64,000 bases of DNA from a plasmid. Shown here in pieces: positions 22,140-35,302 of the stretch. Location of the stretch: assembly GCF_054482595.1 (NCBI RefSeq), contig NZ_JBTHVH010000004.1, one strand, 5' to 3'. Under the pieces are notes generated by a model. That model made no database searches. It had not been told where the DNA came from and saw only the letters and a program-made list of their open reading frames with translations. A program made the position numbers and the translations under genes. Every line of letters begins with the position of its first letter. Position 1 is the stretch's first letter.

Positions 22140-22768
22140 CAGCGATAACGCTTGAAATAGCCCGCTTTGGTCATCATGAAATTAGCCATCTGACTGGCGA
22201 TTTGATTGTATCTTACTCATAGTGCCCTACCTATAGGTTAAAAAGGGGCATTTTCGCTTTATAGCGTGTTCAGCAGCATCAATCCTCCCAAGAAAGGCTG
22301 GCTTATTAAGCCGGTCCATCATTTTCTGTATATCTCTCATCAATTTTTATATCCGCCCTGGAGTGCACCGTTCAAGCACACCGATTAGGCAGATAGTCAC
22401 TAGTTAACTCTTTACTAGTGACTAAATTCCATTGATATACGTGACAACGTCACGTCATGAAAGCTTTTAAATGCCTATTTTTCATACAATGGGATTTAAT
22501 TAGGAGTAAATCCCATAGGCTTACATAAGGATGACAATTAAAAGCGTTAAATATCAACCAGATAGAATGATTACCCCCAATTAATGGGCTCATCACATTA
22601 TTTCACTGGCTGGGGTTATTGCTGGCATATCTGAAAGTGCTAATATGTTAGTCATTAGTAATTAGTAAAGCCTTTACTAAACGCGTTTCTACGTAAATTC
22701 TATAGGTTTTATAGTGTCCTACCTTTGCTCAAATCAAAATGTTCTGACATACCAAAATGGAGTGTAAA
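22140..22768. promoter_or_regulatory. AT-rich non-coding region carrying several perfect inverted repeats
   Basis: tagtcactagt-N9-actagtgacta at 22394-22424, acgtgac-aac-gtcacgt at 22439-22455, and ttagtaaag-c-ctttactaa at 22662-22680. Confidence 0.45.
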
Positions 22769-23587
22769 ATGACTCAAAACCAGGGTTCTGAGCCAGTACC
22801 GGCGAGCCGGACAGGGCAGCTCATCAGCGCCCGGGATATGGCCATGCAGAAATTCGAAGAAGGGATGCGGTTAATCTCGGAAGCGTCGGAACTGTGCGGT
22901 CTCTCTCTCTTCACCAGCAGAATTATGCAGCCCAACGCATTTGGTCTTCCGTCGTCACTGGATCGCACCATCGAGGAGGGGCGTAAGGAAATTGACCGTA
23001 AAACGTGGAAAAGGCTCTTTGAAGAAACAGGTATGGACCGGTACTGGAACCATAAGCAAAAAGAAGCCTTTAACGAATCCCTTCGTACGGATCCGCCCGT
23101 CGCTTCCCTGGAGATTGTTAAGGGAACATTACAGCATGCACTGGCTAACAGACGAGACACCCTTGCAGAAGGTTTCGTTGATGTTCTCAACAAGCTTGAC
23201 CGAAGTTTCAAAAGCAATGCCAGGCAATATACAATGCCAAAAAAGCTTGTTCTTCGGGGGATTTTTCCTGGTGTGAACGTGCTGAGGTACAACGGTTTCT
23301 CGCAGGACAATCACTTTTGTTTACGCGACTTTGAGAATATTGTATGCATCTGTTCTGATACTCCAACACCTGCAACCGGCGGTGGGCTGAGTATGGTCGA
23401 CAGGCTGACGGCCATGAGAAATACAGAATTCACAGGCGAGGTCAGTGATGAGAATGGCTGGCGGTGTCGCCTGTTTGAGAATGGAAACGTTCATATTTGC
23501 ATCGACAGTATCTCGCTTCTGAATGCTCTGAACGATCTTATCAGCATATATTTTGCAAACCAGCTTCCGGCCGCAGGAAAAAAATGA
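22769..23587 (+). CDS. Hypothetical protein (272 aa)
   Basis: ORF with a ggagtg RBS; function not recognised. Confidence 0.5.
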   Translation: MTQNQGSEPVPASRTGQLISARDMAMQKFEEGMRLISEASELCGLSLFTSRIMQPNAFGLPSSLDRTIEEGRKEIDRKTWKRLFEETGMDRYWNHKQKEAFNESLRTDPPVASLEIVKGTLQHALANRRDTLAEGFVDVLNKLDRSFKSNARQYTMPKKLVLRGIFPGVNVLRYNGFSQDNHFCLRDFENIVCICSDTPTPATGGGLSMVDRLTAMRNTEFTGEVSDENGWRCRLFENGNVHICIDSISLLNALNDLISIYFANQLPAAGKK

Positions 23588-25068: not shown

Positions 25069-26388
25069 TTAAGCAGGTGTGTCAGTTGAAAGAGGTTTGC
25101 GTGATTCTGGAAAATGAGGCAGCACCATAGTTTCAGATGCTGTGGTCGCATCCCAGTGCCACCATCCATAAGGCCCATATTCACGGTTGTAATAATCTTT
25201 TTTGAGTTGCTTTCGGGCCAGATAAGCAGGAGTGGCCATACCAAATACTTCCATCGGGAACGGCTTATCGCTTTTTGTGTCGAGCAGGTAGAAGTCAGGG
25301 AACACCTCACTAATACTCGCATCATAACGCATGGGCTTAACGTACTGCCGGTGCTCTGCATCCAGCTTTTCTGCAACAACCGCCTCATAGGAGGAGTCCA
25401 GAGGTATCCAGTTCTCGCTAACGTGCATCAGCACAATTTGATGAGCTCTTACAGAAGGGCCTCTGCCGGTTACCGCAGCTGGTGACGTCAACGCAAAGAC
25501 AACTATTTTCGCCCCGGATTTCCATGCTGCGTACTCCGATGAAAATCGTTTCTTTACGCTATCCCAATGGACTTCTGAATTGAAAAAAATCAGCGGTAGC
25601 CCCCCAAAATTCCGCAGGGGTAAAAATTTAAGTGGCTTCTCATGCTTTTCAGCATCGTAGCGAGGTAAAACTGACAGGAGCATGAGACGTTTATCACTCA
25701 TCGCCTGTGATGAAAGACGCTGAATTTGCGACTGAGCGACAGGTTGTTTCGGGTCAGGTACACCAATGAATAAATGGTCACCTATGCAGGCTCTGCCGGT
25801 ACGAATTTGTTTAGCGGTTTCAAGCAGACGATACCGTACCAGTGAATCGTTACGTTTCCCTGCCATTTTCGGGTACCAGACATTCAGACCAGACTCTGTC
25901 CACAAAAGACTAAGCAAGCCCAGGAGGGTCATTGAGGCCTGACCTCCTTCTGGTCGCTGAACATGGGGCAGGGGAGGCACTTCTGATTTTTCAGGAGGAT
26001 CTTTCTCTGTCATACCGATACCGAGCCTTACAGCCATATCACCTTCGGTTGTAATCCGGACCACACCACTCGCATATCCTTTCAGGCCGGTATGCCGGGC
26101 ATCAAGGGAGAAGAATACACAGGAAGGATCATGCTCAATGCCCGTGTTAGCGGCTTTGACGAGAATAAAGGCATCACCGTTCGGTAAAGCACGAACATAA
26201 AGTCGCTTTTCTCCTTTTCCACGACATCCGCAGGTGATGACTGATTTTTGACCTGAGGTGTGGTGTGCCTTTTTAAGAGCCGACTGCCACCCTTTAGCAA
26301 ACTCATCCTGCGTTTGAAAGTCAGGTGAATACCTTTTGACGTTTGGATCGTCGTCGTAAGCAATCATCACTGCGAATTTTTGGCTCAT
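25069..26388 (-). CDS. DUF1173-like protein (439 aa)
   Basis: Length and content look like the ~400-aa DUF1173 family. This is from memory and needs profile confirmation. Confidence 0.45.
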   Translation of the reverse strand: MSQKFAVMIAYDDDPNVKRYSPDFQTQDEFAKGWQSALKKAHHTSGQKSVITCGCRGKGEKRLYVRALPNGDAFILVKAANTGIEHDPSCVFFSLDARHTGLKGYASGVVRITTEGDMAVRLGIGMTEKDPPEKSEVPPLPHVQRPEGGQASMTLLGLLSLLWTESGLNVWYPKMAGKRNDSLVRYRLLETAKQIRTGRACIGDHLFIGVPDPKQPVAQSQIQRLSSQAMSDKRLMLLSVLPRYDAEKHEKPLKFLPLRNFGGLPLIFFNSEVHWDSVKKRFSSEYAAWKSGAKIVVFALTSPAAVTGRGPSVRAHQIVLMHVSENWIPLDSSYEAVVAEKLDAEHRQYVKPMRYDASISEVFPDFYLLDTKSDKPFPMEVFGMATPAYLARKQLKKDYYNREYGPYGWWHWDATTASETMVLPHFPESRKPLSTDTPA

Positions 26389-26410
26389 AGTAGTCTCCTA
26401 AACAGGAAGT

Positions 26411-26578
26411 TTAATATCCCAACCAGAGCAACACTTCCTGAGCGTCATACTGTTCCTTTACGCCCATGTCGCTAAAGAATTCTTCGAAATCTGTTTCGGG
26501 AACGCAATGCCTGGACAGTTCTTGTAATGCTCGTTCTTTAGATACCGTCTCACCTTCAGCTGATTCGAAATACGTCAT
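26411..26578 (-). CDS. Small acidic protein (55 aa) between the MTase and the DUF1173 gene
   Basis: MTYFESAEGETVSKERALQELSRHCVPETDFEEFFSDMGVKEQYDAQEVLLWLGY. It is below the ORF-track cutoff and was found by reading the sequence. Confidence 0.35.
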   Translation of the reverse strand: MTYFESAEGETVSKERALQELSRHCVPETDFEEFFSDMGVKEQYDAQEVLLWLGY

Positions 26579-26638
26579 GGTTGACCTCTGACATTATTAC
26601 AACAATCTTAAGCATTTAAATTGATGAAGGAGCTCAGG

Positions 26639-28066
26639 TCAGCTGACTTCGTCGTAAAACTGCCGCAAGCGCTGGGAGGCTGCAAATTCAATTCGTGACT
26701 TCAGCAGTTTGGCGACGGCCGCAAAGACATCAACGACCACGGAGTTCCCAAACTGTCTGTAAGCCTGTGTATTGGACACAGGGATACGGAAAACACTTTC
26801 CCCGGGTTTATCGAAGCCCATTAGCCTGCTGCATTCACGTGGCGTTAGCATGCGTGGCCGACGGTCCATGTTGTATGTGTTATGGAAATCAGTTTCTCCC
26901 AGTTCATGAGACCAGCCCCGATCAATAAGAATTTCAGATCCGTCTTTCATATAGCGGCTTGAGAGGGTTATGGTGACACTATTAACATTGGAAGGATCTA
27001 CTAGTCCAAAACCAAAACCATTGCCTTTTGCCGCATGTTTCTTTGCATAGTTGTATAAGTACTCCCAGAGTTTAGGGGAGAGGATGTATTTACTATCTAC
27101 GCTCGGATCCAGTAAATCTGAGAGAGAAGGGCGCTTGTCCGGATAAAAGTCTTTAATGTCTCTCAGAGTAAAACCGTCTTTCAGACGTAGGTCGCGGCGA
27201 AAACCAATAAGGACGATACGTTCACGGTGCTGGGGTCGGAAATGACGGCCATCGATGACTTTAGGATCATCCGCGCCCGTGCTTTCGCTGTTTGCGACGT
27301 CGTAGCCAAGCTCATCGAGCGTTTTCATGATGATGTTAAAGGTATTACCCTTATCGTGACTCTTCAGATTTTTTACGTTTTCCAGAACAAAAATTGCAGG
27401 TTGTTTTGCCCGGATGATCCTGGCCACATCAAAGAAGAGCGTACCCTGAGTGTCGCACTCGAAACCGTGTTTGCGACCCATAGAGTTCTTTTTACTGACA
27501 CCGGCGATGCTGAATGGCTGGCATGGAAATCCCGCAAGAAGAACATCATGATCCGGGATAGAGGCATCGATAAATTTGTATGCCTCGTCATCAGTAACCT
27601 CGGGCCGGTTGCTAAGAGTGATGTCACGGATGTCTGAATTGAAGCGGTGCTCGTTCTCATCGCAATACCAGTTCGCCCGGTAAGTACGGCTGGAATAAGT
27701 ATTCCATTCGCTCGTGAAAAGACATTTACCACCGATGGCATCAAATCCGCTTCGCAGTCCACCTATCCCTGCAAACAGATCGATAAAGCTAAAGTGCCTG
27801 TCCTCATAATCAGCAGGTCGTGAAGGTATTAAAGTCTGTAGATAGCGTCCATCTGCGATACTCAGCTCACAATGCTCAGGTATGCATGTAACCTGACGTT
27901 TAAGGGATGCACGGGACCAATTACTGCCATTTTCATCATTTAATACCTGAGCCAGATATTTCAGGTCATAAATGGTCGAAGCTGTTAACAAAGTTTTGTG
28001 GATCAGAGATGGTGTTTTATCCACATCATTCAGGTCTGTCTCAAGATCATGAGTGTAACGTTTCAT
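26639..28066 (-). CDS. dcm: DNA-cytosine C5-methyltransferase, Dcm family (likely CCWGG-specific)
   Basis: Carries the motifs [24 protein letters not shown] and QRER. Alignment to E. coli Dcm is near-colinear at about 70-75% identity by eye. Confidence 0.85.
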
Positions 28067-28277
28067 CCAAACTCTCTCAGGAATAATATCTTTGAGATAG
28101 ATTAACACGCTTAATTTGGATTATTTTTTGGTTCAGGTTCTAAATTTATTGTGATTATTCTGCCTTTAAGTTGCAAAAAGATTGGTTTTAAGCCCGCCCA
28201 TGAAATAATGACTTGTTAAAATACTGCCTGTAAATAGGCTTGTGGATACATGTCTGTACTCAACAAATCAAGGTGAA

Positions 28278-28796
28278 ATGATGTTTTTTTTAACAAAGTT
28301 ACTTTTGCCCATCATGATTGTTGTATTCCCAGTGGCGTCCTGGGGGAACTCAACAACTTTTGAGGCAAAGGTGGTTAAGATTGTTGACGGTGACACCATA
28401 ACTGCGTTGGATGCTCAAAACACAACCATCAAAATACGGATGTATGGTATAGACGCTCCTGAATCTAAACAGGCTTTTGGCCAAAAAGCAAAACAGGCCT
28501 TAACCACAGCTATAGCAACTAAAATCGTTACCGTGATAGACCATGGTACGGATATCTATGGCCGTATGTTAGGTACCATCTGGTTAGATGGATATGATAT
28601 CAATGCCTCTATGGTGGACAGTGGATATGCGTGGGTTTATCGGTTCGAAGATAACGCCATTGTCCCTGGCTATATCAAATATGAATCCGCAGCACAAAAG
28701 GAGGCAAAAGGGTTATGGGCAGACACCAACCCTGTCCCACCATGGCAGTGGAGACAGGCAAACGAAAAGCCCAGAAAGGTGAAAGAGAAGAAATAA
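28278..28796 (+). CDS. nuc: Secreted thermonuclease-family (SNase-like) endonuclease
   Basis: Signal peptide MMFFLTKLLLPIMIVVFPVASW. SNase motifs are VDGDT...R, YGIDAPE and GRMLG...Y. Confidence 0.7.
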   Translation: MMFFLTKLLLPIMIVVFPVASWGNSTTFEAKVVKIVDGDTITALDAQNTTIKIRMYGIDAPESKQAFGQKAKQALTTAIATKIVTVIDHGTDIYGRMLGTIWLDGYDINASMVDSGYAWVYRFEDNAIVPGYIKYESAAQKEAKGLWADTNPVPPWQWRQANEKPRKVKEKK

Positions 28797-28798
28797 CC

Positions 28799-29695
28799 AT
28801 GATGAAAGAGCCTCATCCGTTACTTCAGTTGGTACTAAACGATTCCGGTCGTCTAACCATGCCTGTTTATTATAGAGATCAACAGTATTGCCCGACTTGC
28901 CTTACAAAGGTGTTGAAGAGTGAGGATGGAAGTTTGGCGCACCTCGGGGAAATAAATCAAAATACATGTAGACCTTCTATTTCAGTAGTTGTGACAAAAG
29001 CAATTATTGAAATGTTATGTGACGGGGAAAAAATATATGTAAATCCAATACGACACCGAGGCCGGGTGCTGGCACCCTCAGTAATTTTTTCTCCCGACAC
29101 TCACACTTTCAAACCGTTTATAAATACAGACTATCAGCCTGTGGGAGCAAACTGGAAAAGTGAAAAGGGATATAAACTCGGTCTGTTTTATCTCAAAGAT
29201 CGAGCCAACTCTATCAATAAAGAGGAATTTGATTTCATTGCCGTTATAGACCCTGAGGCAATGCAGAAAGAATTTATTTCGGCCTGGTCTGAGGTTGATG
29301 AAAAAAATCCATTGGAAACGCTGAAGCAGATCTTACGATCTAAAAACAACTCTTCTTTATGGGTAAAATGGCCTGGCAAAATTGAGCATGCGCAAAAAGG
29401 AAATTACAACGAAAATTACTGGTTCGATTATCAATCTGATAATCAGGAAGTGAACTGTACGGTCTCTGTTGTAGGTATCGAAGGTAACAGTTCCGGTGAG
29501 ACAATTTATAGATTGCAAACTTTGCTAAAGCGTAAGCTCAATGAATATCAACTGGTTCGGTCTTTAGGGACTATTATGCTTCTTGATAATACCGGGAATA
29601 TGATTCCATCAAACCATCCTTATTTTGAAGTCATCTCAAAAGCATGTATAAATGGAGTGCGTGACTTTGTTCGTCAAAACCCGTGGGTAGTCTGA
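28799..29695 (+). CDS. Hypothetical protein (298 aa) translationally coupled to nuc
   Basis: Its start lies 3 nt after the nuc stop. It contains a CPTC motif but no recognisable domain. Confidence 0.45.
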   Translation: MMKEPHPLLQLVLNDSGRLTMPVYYRDQQYCPTCLTKVLKSEDGSLAHLGEINQNTCRPSISVVVTKAIIEMLCDGEKIYVNPIRHRGRVLAPSVIFSPDTHTFKPFINTDYQPVGANWKSEKGYKLGLFYLKDRANSINKEEFDFIAVIDPEAMQKEFISAWSEVDEKNPLETLKQILRSKNNSSLWVKWPGKIEHAQKGNYNENYWFDYQSDNQEVNCTVSVVGIEGNSSGETIYRLQTLLKRKLNEYQLVRSLGTIMLLDNTGNMIPSNHPYFEVISKACINGVRDFVRQNPWVV

Positions 29696-29742
29696 CGGTC
29701 AACTATAAAGCATAATATAATTAGTAATAACAAGGAACAGAC

Positions 29743-30150
29743 ATGAATGAAAACTCAGTAATCTTAATAAGTTTATTTTGGTTTTTTTTGGGATCGAGTG
29801 TTGTAGCTGGTTTTATGGATGCATCATTATATTGCTGGATTTTTGCAGCCATAAGCGCATTGTTTCTTCTTTCGGTGATACAAACACCAAAGGAGTTAAC
29901 GGTATCTATTAGTCATATGACAAGCAAAACGCTGATCTCAAAGACAGATGATGGATACACATTTAGCATTTCACCTTACGGAGACGGGTACCGCTTATCA
30001 GTCTCGCCTGAAAATCGTCACAATGGTACCCAAAGCTTTGACGGCTGGTTCCCACGTTTTTTTTCCGAACCACAGTATGCCAAATCATCTTTAACTAAAT
30101 TTCTCGGTGAGTCCTTAGTATGGGAAGAAGATTCAAGTAATGCTCTATGA
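29743..30150 (+). CDS. Small membrane protein (135 aa, 2 TM)
   Basis: Hydrophobic N-terminus ILISLFWFFLGSSVVAGF...IFAAISALFLLSVI. Confidence 0.4.
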   Translation: MNENSVILISLFWFFLGSSVVAGFMDASLYCWIFAAISALFLLSVIQTPKELTVSISHMTSKTLISKTDDGYTFSISPYGDGYRLSVSPENRHNGTQSFDGWFPRFFSEPQYAKSSLTKFLGESLVWEEDSSNAL

Positions 30151-30195
30151 GATTACTTATTATAAATTTTTCTATTAATCTCCATGGAGTGATAT

Positions 30196-30450
30196 ATGAA
30201 TTTGGCCTATTTTTTATTTTTGTCTATAACTGTTATGCTTACGAGCTTTATTATTAAATCACTTGTCGTATTGGTAAAGTTCAAATTACTTCGTGATGAA
30301 CGTCTCGAATATACCAGCAATAAAAATATTGATGAGATGTACGATTTAATGAATGCGAAGGAAGAAATCCTCATAAGGCATCATAAGCAGATGTTGGCAT
30401 TGCATCTTTCACTATTAATATTCGTTCTATTTATTGCTTACATTTACTAA
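30196..30450 (+). CDS. Small membrane protein (84 aa, 2 TM)
   Basis: YFLFLSITVMLTSFIIKSLVVLV ... LALHLSLLIFVLFIAYIY. Confidence 0.35.
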   Translation: MNLAYFLFLSITVMLTSFIIKSLVVLVKFKLLRDERLEYTSNKNIDEMYDLMNAKEEILIRHHKQMLALHLSLLIFVLFIAYIY

Positions 30451-30487
30451 AAATAATTTTATTCAACATTTCAACAAAGGGTTTTCA

Positions 30488-30775
30488 ATGGAAAGCTTCG
30501 AAACTGAACAAATGATTCAATATGCTTTCTACATAAATATCGTAATAACGACTGGTTTGGCATGGTTTTGCTTGCGGTCAGGATTGCATTACAATTTTTT
30601 CAGAAAAGCAGAGAGTGCCAGAACAAAAGGGCTGAGTAGTACCTCTACTGAACACGGTCCAGCAATAGTGAGACTAAAGAAGCTACAAGCATTAGTAGAT
30701 TTTATTAGTAACTGTGCTTTTCTAATCCTTTCAATTGGCACAGCTTATATTTTGTATGTTTGGAGCCACAGTTAA
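30488..30775 (+). CDS. Small membrane protein (95 aa, 2 TM)
   Basis: FYINIVITTGLAWFCL ... CAFLILSIGTAYILYVW. Confidence 0.35.
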   Translation: MESFETEQMIQYAFYINIVITTGLAWFCLRSGLHYNFFRKAESARTKGLSSTSTEHGPAIVRLKKLQALVDFISNCAFLILSIGTAYILYVWSHS

Positions 30776-30844
30776 CTCATACGAGGTAACTTCGGCAGGT
30801 AACAACTTCTAATGCAGGACTTTAATAACTCTAAGGGATTCTAC

Positions 30845-31042
30845 ATGAAAAAAGACGATCTAATTACGCGTTGTAAATTACTTAAAGGCGAACGCGATGA
30901 GTCTATCTTTACCATATTAATTGGGATAGTAGTAAAGCTGGGGCTGGTAGGCCTGGCATTCTATCTGTTGCTTGGTTCCACGATTGATTGGTCAAGCTGG
31001 AAAACTTATGCCGCCATGTTGATCTTGGGAGCATTTCTCTAA
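30845..31042 (+). CDS. Small membrane protein (65 aa)
   Basis: IFTILIGIVVKLGLVGLAFYLLLG ... AAMLILGAFL. Confidence 0.3.
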   Translation: MKKDDLITRCKLLKGERDESIFTILIGIVVKLGLVGLAFYLLLGSTIDWSSWKTYAAMLILGAFL

Positions 31043-31378
31043 AATCTTGAACCTTTTTTCACTCATTACAAGCCATGACCTAGTGCGTAGATCATACGAT
31101 CTTTAAACCTTATGTCATTGATTTATAAGTACATATAACAAAGATTATGTTAAATACTGTATGTATGTACAGCATCAACAGTTGCCCCCCTCATATTGAG
31201 GTAATTGCTACATTCATACCACTATTCTTCTTATAGTATCGACATCCTGAATTATTGCACCCTACTGCTTTGTCTTTAGCTGTTCCGAATTAAAATTCAT
31301 TGCTCAATTTGGATCACATGACGATCAGCGTATTCCTTTGCTTTATCAAAGTTAAGTTTTTAAAACATAAGATATGTA

Positions 31379-31840
31379 ATGACAAATTCTCAATCTGATT
31401 TTCCTTTGAACGATCAAAATTTTCAGGCAGATTTGCTGAAAATCAAAAAGGTTTTCGCCGACCTTATAACGCAGGCATCAGATGGTAAGATACCCATAAG
31501 GTCTTCTCATGTACACGGCTTACACCATTTCGAGGAGCTCTACATCCGGGCAAGAGCAGGCATGTGTTCGGTCCTGGGATATCCGGTCATGGTTGTTTCA
31601 ACTATCTCAGTTAAAGAGCCCGGCACAGGCATTTTTAGAGCGCTTCTTGCAGAATTGAAATGTATTGCAGATGAACAAAATTACATTTTGAAAATTGAAA
31701 ATGTACTGCCTCCCCTATTCCGCAAATACCTTATTCAAGAAGGTTTTGTTTTCCCAGGTGAACCTTGGATGTGTGGTTCCGGCTATTGGTTTAAGAACCC
31801 ACAAGTACTTCATGAAAATATTGAGTTATTATCTGTTTAA
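31379..31840 (+). CDS. Hypothetical protein, GNAT-acetyltransferase-like fold suspected
   Basis: 153-aa product with a motif-A-like GTGIFRALLAELKCIADEQN. Confidence 0.35.
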   Translation: MTNSQSDFPLNDQNFQADLLKIKKVFADLITQASDGKIPIRSSHVHGLHHFEELYIRARAGMCSVLGYPVMVVSTISVKEPGTGIFRALLAELKCIADEQNYILKIENVLPPLFRKYLIQEGFVFPGEPWMCGSGYWFKNPQVLHENIELLSV

Positions 31841-31869: not shown

Positions 31870-32277
31870 ATGTCCCCGGAATTGGTATCAGACATTGCAA
31901 GAGTGGCGCATGAAAAGCTACTTTCAATTTTAACGGAGTGCGGCATAGAGAAGACGGCAGGCACTTGCCTTTTTGCAAGCTATCTTGTGTGTTATTTAGC
32001 AAAAACTAAAGGTCTAGATGCTGTTGTCCGTGGGGGTAACGGTGCAGATGATGGCGGTATATTTATAGAGTGTGGTGGCTTTGGCCATTATTGGTGTGAG
32101 TTGAATTTCGAAGAAGTGCAATATTATATTGACATCACTTCCGAACAGTTTGGGTTTCATCCATACATAGTGAAACTCGCCAACGATATAACAGGATGGC
32201 CTCGATATATTCCTGGTGATCAGGAAACGGTCGATAGTCATTTAGAACAATTATTACGCGACGGCTATACAGAATAG
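31870..32277 (+). CDS. Hypothetical Cys/His/Asp peptidase-like protein (transglutaminase/papain-like)
   Basis: 135-aa product with ordered C (TAGTCLFASY), H (GGFGHYWCE) and D (YYIDIT). It lies 29 bp after the upstream gene. Confidence 0.35.
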   Translation: MSPELVSDIARVAHEKLLSILTECGIEKTAGTCLFASYLVCYLAKTKGLDAVVRGGNGADDGGIFIECGGFGHYWCELNFEEVQYYIDITSEQFGFHPYIVKLANDITGWPRYIPGDQETVDSHLEQLLRDGYTE

Positions 32278-32327: not shown

Positions 32328-32855
32328 TTAACGGAACCACTCAGGATGACGCTGCCGATCAACTTTGATAACCTGCGAATTAAATTCAACGACATCCGCT
32401 GGAGTAAGCATTAATTCATCAGGATTTACAATAAATGGTCTTAAAACCACTTCGCCACCGTCTTCTTTTGCACCGTAGATATTAATAAGAAAGTGCAGTC
32501 GTTGATTTCCTTCAGCATTGCGTTGCCATTCTCTAAAAGTCAAAGTTTGTTTAATATAGTTTGTTAAAAGAAATGCGAATTCAGATTCTTCCGTTTGTGA
32601 GATACCGATTTTGTTAGACATTTTTTTTAGTATCTTTCCGAGCATGGACACACAGGCATCTAGACTTAACGATGTTGAAATTTTGGTCGTATTAAAATCC
32701 TCCTGCGAAAGTGAAATCATCCATGTATTATCTTTATGATAGTCGGTAATATAAATAAAATGAGATGTAAAAGGCGTTGAGTGATTGAACTCTCCTAAGT
32801 TCCATCCATACTGACTCACTGTATTTGAGCTAAGTTCTTTGTCGGTAATGTTCAT
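32328..32855 (-). CDS. Hypothetical protein (175 aa)
   Basis: ORF only. Confidence 0.35.
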   Translation of the reverse strand: MNITDKELSSNTVSQYGWNLGEFNHSTPFTSHFIYITDYHKDNTWMISLSQEDFNTTKISTSLSLDACVSMLGKILKKMSNKIGISQTEESEFAFLLTNYIKQTLTFREWQRNAEGNQRLHFLINIYGAKEDGGEVVLRPFIVNPDELMLTPADVVEFNSQVIKVDRQRHPEWFR

Positions 32856-33021: not shown

Positions 33022-33408
33022 CTACTTGAATTTTTGATAGCTTATGGTTGTTTTATGTTCTTTGTGATACGCATATGTCATCTTCTCTTTCCAGTACCAA
33101 TCTTGTAGATCCTGCAAGTCTAGCCCATTTTTCTCACGTATGCTTTCGTGTAATTCGCTAAGCGCGAGTTTATCATTAGGTTTATAAATGGCTAATTTTT
33201 CTTCAAATAAATCCAGCCAACGTTTCCCCATCTTACGACGCAAAACAAACACCATCGTGATAAATGTAATGAAATGCACAGCAATTAGTTCCAACTTATG
33301 CGATTGCTGACCAGATAAAATTACTATTGTAACAACAGGGATGGCCGTATATAAAGCAATCAAAGCGACCATAAGTTGGTATGGTTTTTCCCGTATTACC
33401 ATGTTCAT
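33022..33408 (-). CDS. Hypothetical membrane-anchored protein (128 aa)
   Basis: Two N-terminal TM segments followed by a charged C-terminus. Confidence 0.35.
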   Translation of the reverse strand: MNMVIREKPYQLMVALIALYTAIPVVTIVILSGQQSHKLELIAVHFITFITMVFVLRRKMGKRWLDLFEEKLAIYKPNDKLALSELHESIREKNGLDLQDLQDWYWKEKMTYAYHKEHKTTISYQKFK

Positions 33409-33448: not shown

Positions 33449-33486
33449 GGGGAGCCCGCAGAATTCGGAAAAAATCGTACGCTAAG
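33449..33486. repeat. Tn1721 38-bp IRR
   Basis: ggggagcccgcagaattcggaaaaaatcgtacgctaag. Confidence 0.8.
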
Positions 33487-35302
33487 GTTTTCCGGGCATC
33501 CGTAAGGGCCGAAACTTCCCGTCTTCCAGTCTGCGGCTCTGCCGCCAGACGTAATCGCCGGTTAGGTTGATGTGCTCCCAGCCCAGCGGCGACAGGAATT
33601 GCAGCAGCTCGCCGTCCACCGGCTTGCCGGCCTCGACCAACCCCTGGGTGGCGCGTTCCAGGTACACCGTGTTCCACAGCACGATAGCCGCCGTCACCAG
33701 GTTGAGGCCGCTGGCCCGGTAGCGCTGCTGCTCGAAGCTCCGATCCCTGATTTCCCCAAGGCGGTTGAAGAACACCGCCCTGGCCAGCGAGTTGCGCGCC
33801 TCACCTTTGTTCAGGCCGGCATGCACGCGGCGGCGCAGTTCAACACTTTGCAGCCAGTCCAGGATGAACAGCGTGCGCTCGATCCGGCCCAGCTCGCGCA
33901 GGGCCACGGCCAGTCCGTTCTGGCGCGGGTAGCTGCCGAGCTTGCGCAGCATCAGCGAGGCGGTGACGGTGCCCTGCTTGATCGAGCTGGCCAGGCGCAG
34001 GATGTCGTCCCAGTGGGCACGCACGTGCTTGATGTTCAGGGTGCCGCCGATCAGCGGGCGCAACGTCGGGTAGGCTTGCACGCCCTGCGGCACGTACAGC
34101 TTGGTTTCGCCGAGGTCGCGGATGCGCGGCGCGAAGCGGAAGCCTAGCAGGTGCATCAGGGCAAAGACGTGATCGGTGAAGCCGGCCGTGTCGGTGTAGT
34201 GCTCCTCGATCCGCAGGTCGGACTCGTGGTACAGCAGGCCGTCGAGCACATAGGTGGAATCGCGGACGCCGACATTCACCACGCGGGTGCTGAACGGCGC
34301 GTACTGGTCGGAGATATGGGTATAGAACAGCCGTCCCGGCTCGCTACCGTACTTCGGGTTGACGTGCCCGGTGCTCTCGCCCCGGCCACCCGCGCGGAAG
34401 CGCTGGCCATCGGAGGATGAGGTCGTGCCGTCGCCCCAGTGGGCGGCAAAGGCGTGGCGATACTGGTGGTTGACCAGCTCGGCCAAGGCCGCCGAATAGG
34501 TTTCGTCGCGGATGTGCCAGGCTTGCAGCCAGGACAGCTTGGCGTAGGTCAGGCCGGGGCTCGACTCGGCCATCTTGGTCAGCCCGAGGTTGATCGCATC
34601 ACCGAGGATTGCGGACAGCAGCAACGTCCTGTCTTTGGCCTCGGCCCCGTCCTTCAAGTGGGTGAAGTGGCGGCTGAAGCCCGTCCAGTCGTCCACGTCC
34701 ATCAGCAGTTCGGTGATCTTGATGCGCGGCAGTAACTGGCTGGTTTGGTCGATCAGCGCCTGCGCCCGATCCGGCACCGCCGCATCCAGCGGGGTGATTT
34801 TCAGCCCTGACTCGGTGAGGATGGCATCGGGCAGCTCGTTGTCCTTGGCCAGGCGGGTGACGGTGGCCAACTGCTCGTCCAGCAGCTGCAAACGCTCTTC
34901 CAGGTACTGGTCGCTGTTCGGGTTGATCGCCAGGGGCAGGGCCTGCTCGCGCTTGAGTGCGGCGAACTTCTCGGCCGGCAGCAGGTAGTCGTCGAAGTCG
35001 CGGAACTGCCGCGAGCCCTTGACCCAGATGTCGCCGGAGCGCAGGGCGTTCTTCAGCTCGGACAGGGCGCAGATTTCGTAGAATTTCCGGTCGAGGCCTT
35101 CCGGGGTGATCACCAGCGGCTTCCAGCGCGGCTTGATGAAGGCCGTGGGTGCATCGGCCGGCACCTTGCGCAGGTTGTCGGCGTTCATCTCACGCAGGGT
35201 CTGCACGGCTGCCAGCACGCCTTGCGCGGCCGGCCCGTGCTGTTCCCCAACTTTTCGCTCGGCGAAGAGTATGAACATGCGCCGCCGGCGACGAATCGCC
35301 AA
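33482..35302 (-). pseudogene. tnpA: Tn1721 ΔtnpA (3' ~60% of a Tn21-family transposase)
   Basis: 606-aa C-terminal translation ...[33 protein letters not shown], collinear with the Tn21 TnpA at 59496-62447. Confidence 0.8.

Follow-up and report, generated by a model that had tools for sequence, protein, structure and literature searches.

A conserved gene pair of IncHI plasmids encodes a predicted exported SNase-family nuclease and a partner protein of a new family

The sequence analysed here, hereafter the window, is a 64,000-nucleotide stretch of a plasmid (NCBI RefSeq assembly GCF_054482595.1, contig NZ_JBTHVH010000004.1), and the subject of this study is a block of six open reading frames (ORFs) that lie on the same strand between 28278/28281 and 31042. 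The first two encode a putative exported nuclease of the SNase family (nuc) and a 298-residue protein; four small ORFs follow. A 5.35-kb stretch around the block matched 1,164 plasmid records, and in 636 of these the match covered 80% or more of the stretch. The matching plasmids are 200–370 kb in size, mostly conjugative, and found mostly in Escherichia coli, Salmonella and Enterobacter. Two annotated examples are typed IncHI2A, MOBH and MPF_F, and by these matches the window is assigned to the backbone of an IncHI2 plasmid. The block sits outside the transfer region, in accessory backbone with a ter/hipBA/HNH/helicase/hns region on one side and a resistance region on the other. Together, nuc and the 298-aa gene have a GC content of 0.41 and the small ORFs one of 0.36, compared with 0.52 across the window, in agreement with the AT-rich, same-strand layout described in an initial annotation made from the sequence alone. 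The ratio of nonsynonymous to synonymous substitution rates (dN/dS), calculated against loci of intermediate divergence, indicates purifying selection on all of the block ORFs, which can therefore be regarded as genes rather than chance ORFs.

The product of nuc matches Pfam family PF00565 over the full length of the profile (positions 1–107; E=3.8e-24, 85.6 bits versus a gathering cut-off of 21) and aligns to staphylococcal nuclease over the catalytic core. Residues D38, R53, D58, E61, Y93 and R95 correspond to D21, R35, D40, E43, Y85 and R87 of the staphylococcal enzyme, the equivalence of R53 and R35 being taken from the HMMER alignment of the window protein only. In pairwise alignments the calcium-binding and catalytic residues are mostly kept in all six nuc orthologs, and the protein is predicted to be a catalytically intact SNase-family enzyme under purifying selection (dN/dS 0.09–0.18), with a basic C-terminal tail. 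Residues 1–22 are hydrophobic and are followed by a small-residue motif, PVASWG/N, with no lipobox cysteine. Orthologs of 59–74% identity carry differing but equivalent signals (PVATLA/T, PVAAFA/A), likewise with no lipobox. The nuclease thus appears to bear a conserved Sec signal peptide, as the initial annotation had proposed in describing a secreted SNase-like nuclease. The NCBIfam equivalog cut-offs for EcnA (NF047969; 68.3 versus 180 bits) and NucI (NF047694; 49 versus 250 bits) were missed, and searches of the literature for EcnA, the IncHI2 thermonuclease, RP4 ParB and periplasmic nucleases of plasmids gave no usable result.

The 298-aa protein belongs to a new and very narrow family. 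It was described at the outset as having no recognisable domain, and searches of Pfam, NCBIfam, PADLOC and PHROGs were indeed all negative; no relative was found among PDB sequences or PDB folds, and no DNA-binding or enzymatic fold could be recognised. The N-terminus carries a zinc-ribbon-like motif (CPTC...H...C), many invariant residues are of the buried type, and dN/dS is 0.18–0.25. Hydropathy analysis gives neither a transmembrane (TM) segment nor a signal peptide, and the protein is predicted to be cytoplasmic. The family comprises 34 clusters among 5.8 billion proteins, 20 matches among 1.84 billion representatives, and 10 loci in a set of 185,579 species genomes, nine of the 10 being named as Enterobacteriaceae; it is present in 1,556 plasmid records. 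Paralogs are approximately 25–34% identical over the central region, and one of these (P0049) gives sub-threshold matches to zinc-ribbon domains, including CoiA_N and DUF7828. Two further entries, P0033 and P0030, are frameshifted gene calls. A DNA-mimic or acidic-inhibitor design was considered for both the 298-aa protein and the 77-aa protein encoded further downstream, and was rejected because the isoelectric point (pI) is inconsistent across clades.

At the junction of the two genes the string taaccATGATG is as first reported, although the nuc stop codon (TAA, 28794–28796) is separated from the ATG at 28799 by 2 nt (cc) and not by 3. The gene contexts of family members at 99, 88, 81, 73, 52, 37 and 21% identity to the 298-aa protein were compared and scored uniformly. 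The 2-nt gap (TAAccATG) is typical of IncHI2 and a 5-nt gap (TGAccgcgATG) of the IncHI1 type, while in four further loci (L022, L024, L007 and L008) start and stop codons overlap as ATGA or GTGA. The 298-aa gene is accordingly predicted to be translationally coupled to nuc. In every nuc-linked 298-aa locus with enough flanking sequence an SNase gene lies directly upstream on the same strand, and the pair is kept in four clades in which the 298-aa protein is 100, 52, 37 and 21% identical to that of the window. Homologs scattered out of synteny would have spoken against the pairing; instead the two genes remain adjacent across the four clades, which supports a genuine functional pair. Sequence divergence is faster in the partner than in the nuclease, with identities of 52% versus 74–76%, 37% versus 60–63% and 21% versus 49%, respectively.

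The pair can also be lost. A 191-aa protein found on five contigs (P0034) is a natural in-frame deletion that joins nuc residues 1–144 to the C-terminal 46 residues of the 298-aa protein; it is uninformative with regard to immunity because the nuclease C-terminus and most of the partner were removed together. Separately, the whole module occurs on three chromosome-sized records, L003 (CP010512.1, 4.83 Mb), L004 (4.80 Mb) and L032 (CP169086.1, a 5.20-Mb chromosome), which suggests integrated IncHI-like elements or assembly joins.

Comparison of gene order shows that the conserved unit is larger than 28278–31042 and includes the divergently transcribed dcm–orf55–DUF1173 operon at 25069–28066. 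In every clade a DUF1173 gene faces the SNase gene, even in the Klebsiella plasmids that have neither dcm nor the 298-aa gene. The literature places DUF1173 among PD-(D/E)XK-related proteins, with a zinc motif at the N-terminus and no known function (PMC3045609). The 298-aa family shares the presence of an N-terminal zinc motif, but a distant relationship was rejected at an hhalign probability of 0.3%. The 55-aa ORF is 44–62% identical in all clades having dcm and matches the phage family phrog_25588, of unknown function (E=1.8e-24). The dcm orthologs contain the Pfam domains DNA_meth_N and DNA_methylase. A dcm gene accompanies every instance of the 298-aa gene after nuc for which upstream flank is available, and none is present in L018 and L020, the two nuc loci that have no 298-aa gene.

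The co-variation with dcm suggests a cytoplasmic DNA task for the partner. In its full form, this explanation holds that the 298-aa protein acts with the dcm–orf55–DUF1173 products in DNA modification or repair, and that its position after nuc reflects shared regulation only. Among the sampled loci no 298-aa gene follows nuc unless dcm is present, both being missing in L018 and L020, and the zinc-ribbon-like motif, the CoiA_N and DUF7828 matches of P0049 and the joint derepression of dcm and the nuc operon in plasmid R27 (described below) point in the same direction. The number of independent clades is, however, small, with four that have both genes and one or two that have neither; the fold searches and the DUF1173 profile comparison lend no support; and a start/stop overlap with nuc is not needed for mere co-regulation. 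We consider such a role distinctly unlikely.

The spacer between dcm and nuc contains a 21-nt imperfect direct repeat (28149–28169 and 28213–28233). A conserved operator was considered and rejected, as the repeat occurs in this clade only and no 9-mer is common to three or more clades. In a Pseudocitrobacter faecalis locus (L028, 3822–6483) the spacer measures approximately 2.6 kb versus approximately 215 bp elsewhere, which points to an insertion in the divergent promoter region.

Expression data are available for the IncHI1 plasmid R27, in which the order is PLD ← 298-aa ← nuc, facing dcm → 55-aa → DUF1173, where PLD denotes a gene of the phospholipase D family; the nuc ortholog lies at 22403–22918 on the minus strand of the R27 record (L027). 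A microarray study of R27 lists R0148 as 'transposase', R0153 as 'partition protein' and R0154 as 'cytosine methylase' (PMC7366339). From gene order and these names we infer that R0151 is the PLD gene, R0152 the 298-aa homolog, R0153 nuc and R0154 dcm. An assignment to R0074/R0075, considered since IS10 follows the 298-aa gene in pHCM1, was rejected: Tn10 lies elsewhere in the R27 record. Array signals at 25 °C and 37 °C were 692 and 242 for R0153, 270 and 140 for R0152, and 1714 and 362 for R0154 (PMC7366339). In an htdA mutant at 25 °C the transcripts of R0151, R0152, R0153 and R0154 rose 13.5-, 16.3-, 15.6- and 11.1-fold, with no such rise at 37 °C, and R0153 is named among the few non-tra genes induced in all conjugation-promoting conditions (PMC7366339). 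On this mapping, the IncHI1 arrays indicate that the R27 genes for the nuclease, the partner, the PLD protein and Dcm turn on jointly when transfer is permitted, at 25 °C and on derepression by loss of htdA. Induction at 25 °C and derepression in an htdA mutant are the behaviour expected of the thermoregulated IncHI transfer regulon (TrhR/TrhY–HtdA).

The label given to R0153 is an old name, in the style of RP4 ParB, for SNase homologs, and it may be the reason why its co-induction with conjugation was not linked to a nuclease. Taken literally, the label would imply a function in plasmid partition or multimer resolution, and RP4 ParB is itself an SNase-like nuclease encoded in the par stability region. 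The signal peptide is, however, conserved in all orthologs, which would take the enzyme out of the cytoplasm; no resolvase or parA/parC-type genes are found as neighbours in IncHI2 or in R27; and IncHI plasmids have separate parAB modules. We regard a partition function as barely credible.

The initial annotation had also suggested a nuclease–inhibitor or export pair. The pairing stands on the four-clade synteny, while an inhibitor role is weakened by SNases that have no adjacent partner and by free-standing partner paralogs. On the inhibitor hypothesis the 298-aa protein would be a dedicated cytoplasmic immunity protein that silences the nuclease before export and whose loss would be toxic, as for NuiA–NucA and barstar–barnase. 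Adjacency and predicted coupling in four clades fit this well, as do the predicted cytoplasmic location of the partner opposite an exported enzyme, its faster divergence, which immunity proteins often show, and the near-equal derepression of the two R27 orthologs. On the other side, Klebsiella MOBH SNases that are 50% identical to nuc, and the IncC SNases, have no adjacent partner gene, and partner paralogs occur after parAB with no SNase nearby. The protein has no sequence or fold similarity to known inhibitors and, with 298 residues, invariant buried-type positions and inconsistent charge, is unlike the small acidic inhibitors. SNases are moreover calcium-dependent and hence quiet in the cytoplasm. 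Strict immunity is thus judged unlikely.

The coordinates of the block, the facing operon and the downstream ORFs are collected in Table 1.

Table 1. Features in and around the nuclease block (window coordinates)
Feature	Coordinates	Strand	Basis or remark
DUF1173 protein, 439 aa, last gene of facing operon	25069-26388	-	annotation
55-aa ORF between dcm and DUF1173	26411-26578	-	conservation and PHROG match
Dcm-type DNA cytosine-5 methyltransferase, 475 aa	26639-28066	-	annotation; transcribed away from nuc
Divergent intergenic region, 214 bp, GC 0.33	28067-28280	.	AT-rich
nuc, SNase-family nuclease, 171 aa	28281-28796	+	PF00565; alternative ATG at 28278
298-aa partner gene	28799-29695	+	new, very narrow family
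5' remnant (codons 1-56, two TM) of 104-aa three-TM ORF	29743-29910	+	alignment with L002
77-aa soluble protein, fused in frame to remnant	29917-30150	+	comparison with stand-alone homologs
84-aa two-TM hairpin protein, 38-residue basic loop	30196-30450	+	hydropathy; GGAG Shine-Dalgarno
95-aa membrane protein, strong C-terminal and weaker N-terminal TM	30488-30775	+	hydropathy
65-aa membrane protein	30845-31042	+	alternative ATG at 30812 gives 76 aa; last ORF common to IncHI2 lineages
Orphan ORF downstream of block	31379-31840	+	
Orphan ORF downstream of block	31870-32277	+	
Orphan ORF downstream of block	32328-32855	-	
Orphan ORF downstream of block	33022-33408	-	

The first of the small ORFs, of 135 codons (29743–30150), differs from the corresponding region of R478-type IncHI2 plasmids. 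Alignment with a plasmid of that type (L002) shows that 530 bp are absent between 29910 and 29911, comprising the end of a 104-aa ORF, the whole of an 85-aa two-TM ORF and the leader of a stand-alone 77-aa ORF. The 135-aa ORF corresponds to codons 1–56 of the 104-aa ORF, two leader codons and the 77-aa ORF. As counted with junction-specific 50-nt probes, the fused form is carried by 640 plasmids, mainly from E. coli and Salmonella, and the intact form by 462, including R478. In IncHI1-type and third-clade loci the 77-aa ORF stands alone with its own start, so that the deletion is the derived state and the 135-aa 'membrane protein' is read as a deletion fusion.

The 77-aa protein is the most widely conserved product of the small ORFs, with 52–62% identity across clades and a presence in 1,422 plasmids. 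R27 has a truncated copy of its gene, IS10 displaces the gene in pHCM1, and L016, L024 and L032 lack it, which makes it a frequent but dispensable third gene. A 48-aa ORF overlaps it in the +2 frame (29948–30094) and is called by some gene callers; P0059 and P0064, which start in that frame, are hybrid frameshifted calls and not real variants. A Vibrio homolog of the 77-aa ORF is found beside an AAA ATPase and DUF4435 pair (L012, 7323–9371).

The remaining membrane ORFs are restricted to particular lineages. The 84-aa ORF occurs in 1,098 plasmids, essentially all IncHI2, with one further match of 55% in L016. Homologs of the 95-aa ORF, 35% identical and with the same layout, occur in IncHI1-type loci, whereas the third and fourth clades lack them; its sub-threshold match to Pfam DUF6693 is weak (E=0.034). 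The 65-aa ORF, whose product has one strong hydrophobic segment and a second that is weak or short, turned up in IncHI2-type loci only. The dN/dS values are approximately 0.1–0.3 for the 104-, 85-, 84- and 95-aa ORFs (0.17–0.28 for the 104-aa ORF, and 0.09–0.23, from few substitutions, for the 84-aa ORF), and 0.28–0.85 for the 65-aa ORF (0.6–0.85 in the lineage of the window and approximately 0.3 elsewhere). Four consecutive two-TM proteins had been described here; the description fits the 84-aa protein, whereas the 95- and 65-aa proteins have one strong and one weak segment each and the 135-aa protein is the chimera produced by the 530-bp deletion. Nor do the small membrane proteins belong to the system as had been supposed, since clades C and D, L024 and L032 all keep the pair without the 84-, 95- and 65-aa ORFs. 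The slot after the 298-aa gene may be empty or may hold two membrane ORFs, two soluble ORFs (107 and 114 aa) or, in IncHI1, a PLD-family gene (PLDc_2, E=2e-7). Both the small membrane ORFs and the IncHI1 PLD-family gene are interchangeable cargo after the pair.

Two further observations concern this region. Among the IncHI2-like loci (window 29743–31042 versus L025, L022 and L002) the synonymous divergence (dS) of the block from the 77-aa to the 65-aa ORF is approximately 0.02–0.2, and that of nuc and the 298-, 104- and 85-aa ORFs in the same loci is 0.1–1.2. These values suggest mosaicism by recombination, the breakpoint lying near the 77-aa ORF. In most of the listed RefSeq plasmid records the 84-aa, 95-aa and, in the R478 type, 77-aa ORFs are unannotated despite purifying selection.

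The succession of small hairpin membrane proteins after a predicted periplasmic nuclease could be seen as an envelope exclusion or anti-phage unit of all six genes, in which the membrane proteins would block DNA entry and the nuclease would destroy stranded nucleic acid. Phage T4 provides a precedent, with Imm blocking DNA entry and endonuclease I in the periplasm breaking down superinfecting DNA. Defence systems also occur in the variable region downstream in related plasmids, namely Thoeris ThsB/ThsA (L003 and L006, 10235–11691) and type I restriction-modification (L008, 11733–16813); a type VI secretion cluster is found in the same position in L007 (10640 onward). The membrane ORFs do not, however, accompany the pair throughout: all are missing from L024 and L032, the 95-aa ORF is missing from two clades, and the 84- and 65-aa ORFs are of IncHI2 type apart from the 84-aa match in L016. 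The 640 plasmids with the 530-bp deletion represent a successful lineage that has lost one membrane ORF and truncated another. No PADLOC or PHROG model was matched by the unit, and six-gene exclusion appears very unlikely.

A toxin with immunity-type proteins and an abortive-infection-like cassette had likewise been proposed. No PADLOC model for defence, toxin–antitoxin or abortive-infection systems matched the small ORFs or the 298-aa protein, and only the SNase gave a partial match, to SNc+LTD (E=3.2e-11). Membership in any of these categories was rejected on the lack of PADLOC or PHROG matches. On the reading preferred below the block is not a toxin–immunity or abortive-infection cassette, and no support was found for either of these or for a partition cassette.

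The reading that we tentatively prefer is that of an accessory nuclease operon of the IncHI backbone, which encodes an envelope nuclease co-regulated with conjugation together with a partner of a new family. The nuclease would be exported to the periplasm while the mating apparatus is made, and calcium there would allow it to degrade unprotected DNA or RNA at the envelope. Possible substrates include stray extracellular DNA, aborted transfer intermediates, and the nucleic acid of pilus-dependent phages or of transformation. The benefit would fall to the plasmid, and killing of the host would not be involved. An exported nuclease would be a common plasmid trait, as at least 5,000 plasmid records, including 3,824 conjugative ones, carry SNase genes. 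In the weakest step of the scheme, the 298-aa protein would stay in the cytoplasm and be made in a fixed ratio with the nuclease precursor. Because of the coupling, a nuclease-handling role, in which the partner holds or silences the precursor before export, is slightly favoured over an independent role in DNA transactions, while the partner-less sister SNases, the free-standing paralogs and the calcium dependence of SNases argue against a strict inhibitor.

A number of points weigh against this scheme. The activity, localisation and phenotype of nuc are predictions from sequence, with cleavage of the signal peptide deduced from hydropathy and motif alone. The expression data come from IncHI1 R27 and not from the IncHI2 window, the numbering of R0151–R0153 was mapped by gene order and names rather than taken from the original record, and the htdA response is common to most R27 genes (PMC7366339). 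The 50% identical SNases of L018 and L020, from Klebsiella IncHI1B/IncFIB plasmids of the MOBH type, face DUF1173 and have a PLD-family gene and hns downstream; neither the 298-aa gene nor dcm is adjacent, the rest of the plasmid not having been checked. The same limit applies to the IncC SNase (L019), which lies in another gene context with no adjacent partner. The 298-aa paralogs that follow parAB in Klebsiella MOBH and IncT plasmids have no SNase nearby. Finally, the pI of the 298-aa protein ranges from 5.5 to 8.1 across clades with inconsistent net charge, and the calcium requirement of SNases is far above the cytoplasmic supply, so that a cytoplasmic inhibitor is not obviously needed.

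A bolder version of the accessory nuclease operon may be envisaged, in which the 298-aa protein represents a new fold family and forms, with the nuclease, an envelope barrier coupled to conjugation and active once H-pilus and mating channel are in place. Nucleic acid entering through them, such as the genomes of pilus-dependent RNA or DNA phages and competing transferred or transforming DNA, would be destroyed by the pair, offsetting the vulnerability that comes with piliation, and the partner, on the cytoplasmic side, would direct or control the nuclease. We view this version as a long shot.

Beyond the block, homology to R478-type IncHI2 plasmids ends at window position 31044. The segment 31045–33450 is lineage-specific and AT-rich (2.4 kb, GC 0.38), and its four orphan ORFs gave no significant family match in Pfam, NCBIfam or PADLOC. 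This AT-rich segment is abutted by a 606-aa ORF resembling a fragment of a Tn3-family transposase (33482–35302, minus strand), where the GC content rises to 0.53–0.65 at the edge of the resistance region. Within the block itself, Rfam returned no non-coding RNA at E up to 0.1. A scan for promoters, also in the dcm–nuc intergenic region, and for terminators gave signals no higher than the shuffled expectation.

Plasmids of the IncHI1 and IncHI2 groups are among the main vehicles of multidrug and colistin (mcr-1) resistance in Salmonella, E. coli and Enterobacter. The operon belongs to their conserved backbone and is found in about 1,500 sequenced plasmids, yet its genes are annotated merely as 'thermonuclease' and 'hypothetical'. 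The gene model is corrected here in two respects: the 135-aa protein of 640 plasmids is read as a fusion, and the 77-aa ORF, often unannotated, as the more widely conserved third gene. To our knowledge, no biological role has been firmly established or agreed for the SNase-type nucleases of plasmids, and a clade in which the partner is strictly coupled offers a genetic handle on that role.

Of the characterised enzymes, S. aureus (Staphylococcus aureus) Nuc resembles the IncHI nuclease in its catalytic core, calcium-binding and catalytic residues and N-terminal export signal. The relationship is distant (E ~1e-10), and the IncHI protein differs in being plasmid-borne in Enterobacteriaceae, in its basic C-terminal tail and in its coupled partner; the staphylococcal gene is not known to have a coupled downstream partner. 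Closer counterparts are the SNases of other conjugative plasmids. The IncC and Klebsiella IncHI1B/IncFIB types are exported homologs, and the Klebsiella type also faces DUF1173, but both lack the adjacent 298-aa partner and dcm found in IncHI. RP4 ParB and the Nuc protein of the IncI1 plasmid R64 are likewise SNase-type nucleases of conjugative plasmids, and their genes are not known to have the 298-aa partner or dcm beside them. The RP4-type par locus combines a cytoplasmic nuclease with a resolvase and its site, whereas the IncHI nuclease has a conserved signal peptide and no resolvase neighbours.

NucA–NuiA of Anabaena and barnase–barstar share with the IncHI pair an exported non-specific nuclease and an adjacent, co-expressed gene for a cytoplasmic protein. 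The IncHI partner is nevertheless two to three times larger, is not consistently acidic and has no sequence or fold similarity to those inhibitors; it is absent from sister nuclease clades, and its paralogs occur away from nucleases. The periplasmic endonuclease Nuc of pKM101 belongs to the phospholipase D family, and in IncHI1 and Klebsiella plasmids the operon slot that follows either nuc or the 298-aa gene is taken by a PLD-family gene; the window has no PLD gene, and the PLD and SNase folds are unrelated. Comparable to the role proposed here is that of the Dns protein of the Campylobacter element CJIE1, which, in the passage of PMC12378983 that cites it, is a mobile-element DNase limiting DNA uptake. 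The likeness to that account is of an element-encoded DNase acting on incoming DNA to the benefit of the element; the nuclease family and host are different, and the IncHI role is a proposal only. Enterobacteria are, moreover, not naturally competent in the same way as Campylobacter. We agree with the initial view that no characterised system has the composition of this block. The exported SNase is an ordinary kind of plasmid gene, and it is its conserved arrangement with a partner of unknown fold that is uncharacterised.

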